Shown here piece after piece: positions 10,310 through 11,279 of a DNA stretch of 56,902 nt. The notes beneath the pieces were generated by a model that was not told where the DNA came from, did no database searches, and saw only the letters and a list, made by a program, of their open reading frames with translations. Position 1 is the first letter of the stretch, and each line of letters starts with the position of its first letter. The stretch is from a virus (lineage: Duplodnaviria; Caudoviricetes): positions 1 to 56,902 of IMG/VR virus record IMGVR_UViG_3300042350_003263; one strand, written 5' to 3'. A program made the translations under genes and the position numbers.

Positions 10310-10384
10310 GTCCCTAGAGCATGATGGTTATGCACGCGCCTCTAAAACGCTGAAATGCAGGTTCAATTCCTGTTAGGGACACCA
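10310..10384 (+). tRNA. Amber suppressor tRNA (anticodon CTA)
   Basis: GTCCCTA/TAGGGAC-ACCA, GCAT/ATGC D stem, loop CTCTAAA on a weak 3-bp stem, T arm GCAGG-TTCAATT-CCTGT. Confidence 0.75.
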
Positions 10385-10544
10385 AGAATCCGACTTTATG
10401 AGTCCATGTGGAAGAGTAACCGAGACAACTTCTGCATTCTCATATTCACTAACGCTGTATATGCTGGCAAAGCCGATAAATACCTTCTCAGGTTGTGCAT
10501 ATGTTAGAGCCGGATAACTAACCTTTAATAAAGGAGAAATACAA

Positions 10545-10583
10545 ATGAAGAGATATCACTTGTAGATTACTAGACCGCCCTAA
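10545..10583 (+). promoter_or_regulatory. Leader peptide MKRYHL-[TAG]-ITRPP-TAA and putative translational attenuator
   Basis: Strong AAGGAG SD; CCTAAATTGG 10579-10588 is the exact complement of CCAATTTAGG 10615-10624, which overlaps the SD of the next gene. Confidence 0.65.
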
Positions 10584-10632
10584 ATTGGGCCTTACATTAT
10601 GAAGAACCAATGAACCAATTTAGGAGAATAAA

Positions 10633-11064
10633 ATGTCTGTAGAACTTAAAATTAAATCTAAACACCTTTCAGAAGAAGCTCGTATCATTCGTTTTGAAGA
10701 GCGTAAAGTAAAGAGACAAATGAACTGGCACAAAGACCGTCAGCAACCATTTGAAAAAGAAGCTTCGCTTTATCATTCTTTGAACGCTCACCGTCGTTGG
10801 GAAGTGCGTAACGAGAATCGTGCTACCTTCCTTGCTCGTGCTTATCTTGCTGGTAAAGAATATAAGACCATTGAGAATAAGTGCCACGATCCTATGGTGC
10901 TTCGTGCTTACATCCTTCCTCGTGTATGCGAGATGGTAAACAAGTACGGTCCAACTGCTGGCAAACTGAGTAAGAAATGGAACAGAGAGCGTATGCGTTA
11001 TGAGTATGATGCAGAACCTTGGAAAGCTCACTGCGATAAAGTGAAAGCTTGGACTGAAAGTTGA
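10633..11064 (+). CDS. Conserved basic phage protein of unknown function (MSVELKIKSKHLSEEARIIR...)
   Basis: TAGGAG SD, 143-aa ORF with phage-like codon use. Confidence 0.8.
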   Translation: MSVELKIKSKHLSEEARIIRFEERKVKRQMNWHKDRQQPFEKEASLYHSLNAHRRWEVRNENRATFLARAYLAGKEYKTIENKCHDPMVLRAYILPRVCEMVNKYGPTAGKLSKKWNRERMRYEYDAEPWKAHCDKVKAWTES

Positions 11065-11074
11065 TATATACTAT

Positions 11075-11162
11075 TTGGATGGATACTGCAACCAATTTGT
11101 AGGGGTAATAACCTACTGTTCAAGCGGTTAGATAGTATCATCGAAATCCACAGACCATCCAG
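11075..11162 (+). ncRNA. Possible Y-RNA-like element G
   Basis: TTGGATGG-ATACTGCAA...CCATCCAG matches the family stem and motif with compensatory changes. Confidence 0.5.
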
Positions 11163-11276
11163 TCTTACAACTTGTGGATAGTACGTGATATGAGTCTAAC
11201 CCACGTTACACTAGCGTGAAGTGATCCTTGGCTCCGGCTCTATGGATCGGTGTGACAGCTCGGAGAGACGGGCGCT
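11163..11276 (+). ncRNA. Structured ncRNA candidate ending GTGACAGCTCGGAGAGACGGGC
   Basis: GATCC/GGATC and GCTCG/CGGGC stems; GTGGAT can pair with ATCCAC near 11146. Confidence 0.4.
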
Positions 11277-11279
11277 TAT

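Follow-up and report, generated by a model that had tools for sequence, protein, structure and literature searches.

An amber codon in a phage leader beside a suppressor tRNA gene: a putative translational switch gated by the phage's own tRNA

In the ermC, cat, cmlA and secM-secA systems, a ribosome held in a short leader with its own Shine-Dalgarno (SD) sequence occupies one arm of an RNA helix and frees the SD of the gene downstream. The prfB gene, whose product is release factor 2 (RF2), carries an in-frame UGA that is passed by +1 slippage in the P site on CUU U, with an internal SD. Termination is slow after a C-terminal proline, as at the Pro-stop of tnaC and the Pro-Pro-stop of cytomegalovirus uORF2, and SsrA tagging occurs after C-terminal Pro-Pro. 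Frameshift-suppressor tRNAs with anticodon loops of eight nucleotides (nt) are known as the sufD/sufJ type and as engineered quadruplet tRNAs. Here we describe a locus at positions 10310-11064 of a 56,902-nt stretch of tailed-phage DNA (IMG/VR record IMGVR_UViG_3300042350_003263; the whole stretch is called the window), in which a tRNA gene with the anticodon CUA, a leader open reading frame (ORF) containing an in-frame TAG and a gene for a protein of 143 amino acids (aa) probably make up a single module that works as a translational switch, with the phage's own suppressor tRNA as its gate. The window is a 57-kb fragment of the virus record, estimated to be 31% complete, and holds 25 tRNA genes (ARAGORN) together with baseplate and tail genes.

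Comparable parts have been assembled by design or found in other settings. Synthetic switches that combine a UAG in a leader with an orthogonal tRNA(CUA) turn the downstream gene on by readthrough (excerpt of PMC6412442). In recoded phages, a phage suppressor tRNA has been proposed to time phage gene expression (excerpt of Borges et al., 10.1101/2021.08.26.457843), and four-base decoding is found in natural as well as synthetic settings (excerpt of PMC9094753). Our full-text literature searching returned no natural leader that senses a suppressor tRNA, which does not prove its absence from print, and the main text of Borges et al. (10.1101/2021.08.26.457843) contains none of the terms 'leader', 'attenuat', 'Shine-Dalgarno' or 'sensor'.

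The locus in the window consists of the following features.

10310..10384, + strand: tRNA gene, anticodon CUA (amber suppressor), CCA encoded; ARAGORN (cta) and Rfam RF00005, 48.4 bits
10385..10522, + strand: conserved structured RNA of ~135 nt, directly 3′ of the tRNA; RNAalifold, 11 sequences
10531..10536, + strand: leader SD, AAGGAG, 8 nt ahead of the leader ATG; read from the sequence
10545..10583, + strand: leader ORF, M-K-R-Y-H-L-[TAG]-I-T-R-P-P-[TAA]; read from the sequence
10579..10588, + strand: 5′ arm of the anti-SD helix, CCTAAATTGG, overlapping the last Pro codon and the TAA; sequence and fold
10615..10624, + strand: 3′ arm of the anti-SD helix, CCAATTTAGG, its final three bases lying in the SD of the 143-aa gene; sequence and fold
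10633..11064, + strand: putatively gated gene for a basic protein of 143 aa with the near-invariant N terminus MS[VI]ELKIK; ORF and homologs

The leader reads ATG AAG AGA TAT CAC TTG TAG ATT ACT AGA CCG CCC TAA, with the TAG as codon 7 (10563-10565), Pro-Pro at 10575-10580 and the TAA at 10581-10583. The SD of the 143-aa gene is AGGAG (10622-10626). An initial annotation of the locus had claimed this leader with its SD, TAG, Pro-Pro and TAA, a 10-nt helix overlapping the SD of the gene, and a CUA tRNA upstream. All the leader elements are present where it placed them, CCTAAATTGG and CCAATTTAGG are perfectly complementary, and both ARAGORN and Rfam identify the tRNA, which ends 160 nt before the leader ATG.

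As in the ermC, cat, cmlA and secM leaders, the phage leader has its own SD, and a helix arm at its end would sequester the SD of the following gene. Those systems respond to an antibiotic, or to the state of secretion, through its effect on an arrest peptide, whereas in the phage device the ribosome would have to pass an in-frame stop or a four-base site; unlike leaders of the ermC or secM type, the phage leaders contain no family-specific arrest sequence beyond Pro-Pro. With prfB the device shares an early in-frame stop (codon 7 here; 0-10 codons precede the TAG in relatives) as the point of decision between termination and recoding, and a sister clade described below would need a +1 change of frame. 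It differs in that the recoded ORF is only a leader, the recoding agent is apparently a dedicated tRNA and the product matches no release-factor family (Pfam, NCBIfam, PHROG, PDB); because that product is not a release factor, the device is not a member of the prfB system. The Pro-Pro directly before the stop is a slow-termination context like those of tnaC and uORF2 and a putative stall site, but unlike the tnaC type it implies no small-molecule effector, and in some variants the stop does not directly follow Pro-Pro. The logic is that of the synthetic UAG-leader switches, which, according to the excerpt of PMC6412442, were built by design and work by way of transcription termination (rut unmasking), whereas the phage device is natural, widespread and built on an SD-sequestering helix.

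We propose that the switch would work as follows. The leader would be translated from its own SD, and release factor 1 (RF1) would end translation at the UAG of codon 7, so that the ribosome would never reach the helix, which begins 16 nt on; the SD of the 143-aa gene would stay paired and the gene off. A charged suppressor tRNA would instead read the UAG and let the ribosome continue for five codons to Pro-Pro-UAA, where it would sit on the 5′ arm and free the SD, so that other ribosomes could initiate and the gene would be on. The Pro-Pro ahead of the stop most likely slows termination, which would hold the helix open longer and amplify rare readthrough. In a possible variant, the same ribosome scans on to the start of the gene. 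If the mechanism holds, the output of the switch would reflect how much active suppressor tRNA there is relative to release factor. The initial annotation had likewise read the locus as leaving the SD occluded upon termination at the TAG and freeing it upon readthrough, and the comparative sequence data argue for that reading through the conservation of the leader, the covariation of the helix, its two-position geometry, the linkage to tRNA(CUA) and the paired change of site and anticodon (UAG with CUA, UGAA with UUCA).

Relatives of the locus comprised 29 from viral contigs, the best 80 of 250 metagenome relatives, 2 from species genomes, 3 from deposited phage records and a diverged sister clade with TGA-A leaders. 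Among these, 115 loci have a defined gene start; 7 had less than 120 nt upstream and the other 108 yielded 82 distinct upstream regions of 110 nt. A strict pattern, in which an SD-like sequence and a start codon are followed by 0-10 sense codons, a TAG, 1-9 further sense codons and CCN-CCN, the frame then ending at a stop or continuing into the gene, is present in 65 of the 82 regions; as a control, the same pattern search gave 1 match in 686 upstream of other ORFs of at least 100 aa in the same loci and genomes. When inspected variants are counted, 76 regions have the TAG followed by an in-frame Pro-Pro, and in three more (L027, L122 and L115) the leader reads TGA-A in frame and Pro-Pro in the +1 frame. 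No leader that we have seen carries a sense codon in place of the TAG. The initial annotation had named homologs without the leader or without its TAG as what would speak against it; 76 of the 82 regions keep both TAG and Pro-Pro, and two lack the leader, an outcome strongly in its favor.

The peptide itself is free to change. The 65 strict leaders encode 52 distinct peptides in which only the TAG and Pro-Pro are constant, with K or R ahead of Pro-Pro in 31 of the 52. An identical leader occurs in the window and in L001 despite 71% identity between their proteins and differing upstream contexts and tRNA scaffolds. The TAG is followed by I (28), V (10), P (5), T (4) or other residues, and because no start codon recurs between the TAG and Pro-Pro, translating Pro-Pro requires readthrough of the TAG. 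A purine after UAG favors amber suppression, and the base 3′ of the TAG is A in 45, G in 11, C in 7 and T in none of 63 leaders. According to an excerpt of PMC6412442, the 3′ base influences recognition of UAG by RF1, and poly-Pro C termini lower termination efficiency most in E. coli.

Inspection of the variants shows how far the arrangement can be altered. L055 and L057 have the TAG and Pro-Pro and no stop ahead of the gene, L058 has two in-frame TAGs before Pro-Pro-TAA, and in L066 the TAG, Pro-Pro and TAA are present with the start either off the contig or more than 10 codons away. Seven regions of one clade (L069, L070, L075, L081, L086, L096 and L103) have M-x(1-4)-TAG followed by an ORF of 81-84 codons that ends in Pro-Pro-TAA plus the anti-SD arm (for example L081, 418-681), with the TAG at codon 3-6. 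The protein sequence of this ORF is conserved, it has no conserved internal start, and it has no match in Pfam or PHROG; it looks like a protein-coding gene that can be made only by amber suppression. In L051, L052 and L054 (for example L051, 597-1130) the leader frame after the TAG and Pro-Pro runs without a stop into the main gene, so that readthrough would yield an N-terminally extended protein besides opening the helix. Two cultured phages carry tRNA(CUA), leader and gene together: Bacteriophage DSS3_MAL1, which grows on Ruegeria pomeroyi, and Synechococcus phage BUCT-ZZ01, which grows on Synechococcus elongatus PCC 7942.

The anti-SD helix has been kept through many compensatory changes, which answers the suggestion in the initial annotation that homologs be searched for anti-SD covariation. 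Since a MAFFT alignment sets the helix arms in different columns, we compared duplex energies of own and swapped arms instead of scoring covariation by column. Across 58 distinct arm pairs, own partners average -13.39 kcal/mol versus -7.51 kcal/mol for swapped ones, and 0 of 10,000 permutations reach the own mean, in a test that overstates independence because many of the loci are related and that, to this extent, counts less for the switch. Ranked against all 58, the own partner comes first or shares first place in 20 cases (median rank 1), and the duplex output shows more than 20 different helix sequences among the 58 pairs.

The position of the helix is as constrained as its pairing. In 58 of 58 pairs it starts to pair 13-27 nt (mode 16) downstream of the T of the TAG; in 45 this first paired base is within -2 to +6 nt of where the terminal stop begins, and in 55 at least three of the four SD core bases are paired. 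A ribosome unwinds mRNA to about +11 and protects it to about +15, counted from the first base in the P site. By this geometry, a ribosome with the UAG in its A site should reach ~8-12 nt past the T of the TAG and fall short of the helix, whereas one with the terminal stop in its A site should cover the 5′ arm. The spacer between the TAG and Pro-Pro is mostly three codons (45 of 63), and such a spacer together with Pro-Pro is what this two-position logic needs.

A suppressor tRNA accompanies the leader in most relatives. Among 95 loci with at least 450 nt upstream, ARAGORN finds a CUA or odd-loop tRNA in 79, and in 10 of the remaining 16 inspection reveals a tRNA-like sequence whose loop contains CUA. 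The tRNA scaffolds vary between clades; the leader architecture is constant. Separately, tRNA-like genes that hold the CUA triplet in odd anticodon arms, with stems of three base pairs and loops of 9-10 nt, occur in L009 (~2680-2755), L035, L042, L087, L093, L078 and L080, and another with a 6-nt loop occurs in L017; ARAGORN overlooks these genes or leaves them unnamed. The suppressor tRNAs of these phages may often be non-canonical.

In the diverged sister clade, the site and the tRNA differ together. Eight distinct leaders (L027, L122, L124, L125, L133, L134, L135 and that of phage NCTB, L115) have an in-frame TGA followed by A, and in all eight Pro-Pro lies 3-7 codons on in the +1 frame. 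Because 2-5 codons precede the TGA-A, counted from the proximal ATG, the start is always in frame with the TGA and not with Pro-Pro. The helix pairs the end of the leader with the SD or, in L027, with the start codon. Upstream of the leader in L027, L122, L125 and L133 lies a tRNA with the loop C-U-U-U-C-A-A-(U/A), with three complementary bases on each side. Read as an 8-nt loop, it presents a four-base anticodon, UUCA, complementary to UGAA; this loop size rests on our manual reading of the stems, as ARAGORN calls two of the four tRNAs Glu(ttc) with a 7-nt loop and reports the other two as 'ttca' or odd. The two Glu calls make the sister-clade tRNAs look derived from tRNA-Glu. In the phage that carries L027, this tRNA is the only one in the genome:

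G002:C1:8460-8534: tRNA with UUCA in an 8-nt loop, beside the TGA-A leader; sole tRNA of the L027 phage (G002; 69,458 bp, 99% complete; L138-L141)

The codons ahead of the TGA-A are TGG, AAC, CGC, ACC and TTC, and these should be unable to re-pair after a +1 shift, which slippage in the P site would require. The sister clade would probably use a four-base UGAA decoding event by the neighboring tRNA, as the +1 position of Pro-Pro in all eight leaders suggests. The loops resemble those of the sufD/sufJ tRNAs, but whereas the latter are laboratory mutants, or engineered in the case of quadruplet tRNAs, here a wild-type phage gene has a conserved cognate site at which four-base decoding is predicted. 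One further locus, L126 (~1400-1500), has an M-T-TAG-A leader with Pro-Pro only in the +1 frame (C-R-S-P-P) and an anti-SD helix, and could represent a four-base device reading UAGA; the L126 locus yielded no tRNA, which complicates the reading of the sister clade.

Several observations weigh against a switch gated by the tRNA. L098 has the TAG without Pro-Pro (1 of 82 regions), and L022 and L048 lack the leader (2 of 82), even though tRNA(CUA) lies 24 nt upstream in L048. Pro-Pro is not closely followed by a stop in L051, L052, L055, L057, L125 and L135, so that the terminal stop itself is not essential. The available flank of 6 of the 95 loci contains no CUA tRNA, phage NCTB has a TGA-A leader and, by Rfam, no tRNA in its 258-kb record, and in 4 of the 8 TGA-A loci the stretch of sequence retrieved lacks an 8-nt-loop tRNA. 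The tRNA of L017 (2742-2817) has a 6-nt loop, and the window tRNA(CUA), compared pairwise with the other 24 tRNAs of the window, reaches at best 71%, with Asn, a comparison that singles out no amino-acid identity for the suppressor. Strong suppression would be costly for the phage, because the TAG ends 50 of the 308 ORFs of at least 100 aa in G001, a complete 218-kb genome whose leader is identical to that of the window. As to folding, the helix of the window taken alone is only modestly better than shuffles: 14 of 200 shuffles fold as well as 10520-10660 (z = -1.66) and 8 of 200 equal 10572-10640 (z = -2.04). Finally, we infer all three of the functional steps, namely readthrough, stalling at Pro-Pro-stop and the direction of the switch (gene on). 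The pattern TAG-N9-CCNCCN-TRR occurs once in the window versus 0.27 expected, and at least once in 22 of 100 shuffles, so that the window copy by itself is statistically unremarkable; it is the conservation across relatives that puts the device beyond chance.

The leader might instead sense the availability of release factors, or termination efficiency, independently of the phage tRNA, with a shortage of RF1 (RF2 for UGA-A) or near-cognate host tRNAs allowing passage. A design of this kind necessarily reads the tRNA-to-release-factor ratio, prfB offers a precedent for an in-frame stop sensed through competition with a release factor, and both the tRNA-less record of phage NCTB and the six flanks without a CUA tRNA speak for it. 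The tight linkage of gene and tRNA(CUA), seen in 79 of 95 loci by ARAGORN and 10 more by inspection, is against it, as is the match of recoding site to anticodon type (UAG with CUA, UGAA with UUCA). Moreover, the 69-kb phage keeps as its single tRNA the matching 8-nt-loop tRNA beside the leader, and slippage of the prfB kind is disfavored by the codons before the TGA-A. We therefore regard this alternative as unlikely, though it is the best of the rivals to the tRNA-gated switch.

A second alternative holds that translation always ends at the TAG and that the downstream CCNCCN acts purely as RNA, as an extended anti-SD or a binding site, with a protein or small RNA acting in trans to open the helix. 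CCNCC does resemble an anti-SD, swapped arms still average -7.5 kcal/mol, and the helix arm reaches into the second Pro codon in the window. Pairing nevertheless leaves the conservation of Pro-Pro unexplained, because the arm starts after both codons in 17 of 58 pairs and uses at least four of their six bases in only 7 of 58. The first Pro codon is CCA in 35, CCT in 13, CCG in 8 and CCC in 7 leaders, and the second is CCC in 28, CCT in 27 and CCA in 8; the variable bases of CCNCCN are thus third codon positions, in frame with the TAG. The seven regions in which a conserved ORF without a conserved internal start separates the TAG from Pro-Pro-stop also argue for translation through the site, and in the TGA-A clade Pro-Pro always falls in the +1 frame despite differing leader lengths. 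Taken with these frame relationships, a purely RNA-level role is very improbable.

Nor do these phages appear to read TAG as sense throughout, in the manner of code 15, which would make the leader an ordinary upstream ORF for coupling and its TAG incidental. Suppressor tRNAs are typical of TAG-recoded phages (excerpt of Borges et al., 10.1101/2021.08.26.457843), and like code-15-type recoded phages the window encodes one, at 10310-10384. However, the long late genes of the window, which encode baseplate and tail proteins of 608, 848 and 1461 aa, read without interruption in table 11. In the same table, 52 ORFs of at least 80 aa on the + strand cover 0.757 of the window, the TAG ending 5 of them; in G001 the 308 ORFs of at least 100 aa read in the standard code cover 0.88, the TAG ending 50 of them, and in G002 such ORFs cover 0.92. 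Each of the two complete genomes, G001 and G002, holds exactly one leader-like device, no TAG-gated ORF beyond the leader was found in the window, G001 or G002, and in the leaders themselves the TAG is never replaced by sense. These phages use the standard code with one gated site per genome, unlike the recoded phages with many in-frame stops treated in the excerpted part of Borges et al. (10.1101/2021.08.26.457843). General recoding of TAG, which we considered hardly credible, was rejected on the open late genes and the standard-code coverage.

Contigs from four metatranscriptome libraries cover the tRNA and spacer (10310-10517), one spans 10564-10706 without any difference, and in several runs the contigs are interrupted near 10517-10564; DNA may be present in contigs of this kind, they cannot show strand, transcript ends or translation, and their uncovered parts mean nothing. 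Equally hard to credit is that the helix serves to terminate transcription or to guide RNase processing, or that the leader makes a functional micropeptide, with the link to the SD incidental: the region does belong to a tRNA array, a setting in which RNA is often processed, and the breaks between contigs could be cited as a weak point in favor, but no U-run follows the 3′ arm in the window, that arm covers at least three of the four SD bases in 55 of 58 relatives, the contig across 10564-10706 is continuous, and the leader peptide is unconserved apart from Pro-Pro.

Under the tRNA-gated switch, we favor a tRNA that is largely a regulatory part of the module, because the code is standard, there is one site per genome and in one phage the special tRNA is the sole tRNA. 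It would serve as a timer or checkpoint for the expression, processing and charging of the tRNA island, or as a sentinel for host attack on tRNAs. The fullest form of this proposal is a self-contained orthogonal switch in which the main or only job of the suppressor tRNA is regulatory, as a trans-activator of one gene and not a decoder of the proteome; it would report on the tRNA island or on whether tRNAs attacked by the host are intact, and would count among its parts the first natural case in which a wild-type tRNA decodes UGAA in a programmed way, at a target site dedicated to it. Taken whole, with all of these parts, we consider it to have somewhat less than an even chance of being right. 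It is also possible that the gated protein feeds back on suppression itself.

The 143-aa protein has no match in sequence searches of Pfam, PHROG, NCBIfam or PDB. Its family is large: cluster representatives number 2920 at E ≤ 0.001, of which 1495 remain at E ≤ 1e-10 and 84 at E ≤ 1e-30, and all among the 120 listed hits carry the source name 'hypothetical protein'. No usable feature hit came from the ESM Atlas. A structural model of one relative, P0247, is of low confidence (pTM 0.44), and its structural neighbors reach a TM of ≤0.41. In L027 the gene neighbors are a small terminase gene and tail-fiber-like genes, which are uninformative on function.

The ~135-nt RNA begins a few bases past the CCA of the tRNA. 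For 11 sequences RNAalifold predicts 31 pairs, of which 10 show compensatory changes and 0 are broken; the RNA has no Rfam match at E ≤ 1, and RNA-library contigs cover it. It is optional, being absent where the tRNA lies ~30 nt from the leader, yet L001 has it behind the tRNA although 900 nt separate it from the leader there. The tRNA cluster of phage T4 holds stable RNAs of unknown function, which the ~135-nt RNA recalls.

Two further elements were noted in or near the window locus. In the subclade of the window, a small hairpin at 10540-10565 pairs bases before the leader AUG (UACAA / CUAC) with bases ending in the UAG, so that the amber codon is paired with a CUA triplet within the mRNA. 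This hairpin has z < -1.5 in 18 of 45 distinct leaders and is specific to the clade, not family-wide, and we dropped it from the general model for that reason. Between the 143-aa gene and a gene for tRNA-Gly(UCC) lies a 215-nt stretch without a notable ORF (11065-11279), and an RNA-library contig covers 11086-11282.

Phage-encoded genes for transfer-messenger RNA (tmRNA) lie within 1-1.2 kb of the putatively gated gene in three TGA-A loci, as found with Rfam.

L134, 681-1043: alpha_tmRNA, 130 bits
L125, 2018-2395: tmRNA, 96 bits
L135, 2639-2703: permuted tmRNA, 52 bits, truncated where the contig stops

Stalls at Pro-Pro-stop trigger tagging by tmRNA, and a link between these genes and the Pro-Pro-stop leader is conceivable.

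The device recurs in dozens of diverged phages and is unreported as far as our literature searching reaches. The module can be tested directly in the cultured phages DSS3_MAL1 and BUCT-ZZ01, and the large uncharacterized family of the gated protein, with its 2920 representatives, is an obvious target for functional work. If the proposed mechanism is true, a phage tRNA would act as a dedicated regulator that switches on one neighboring gene through a leader with its cognate site, and this would explain 'orphan' suppressor tRNAs in phages that use the standard code. The module would be a natural counterpart of the engineered switches built from orthogonal tRNAs and UAG leaders, and the sister clade would provide wild-type four-base decoding with a defined function. 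A single gated site combined with a sensor of suppressor activity could, in addition, be a stepping stone to stop-codon recoding.

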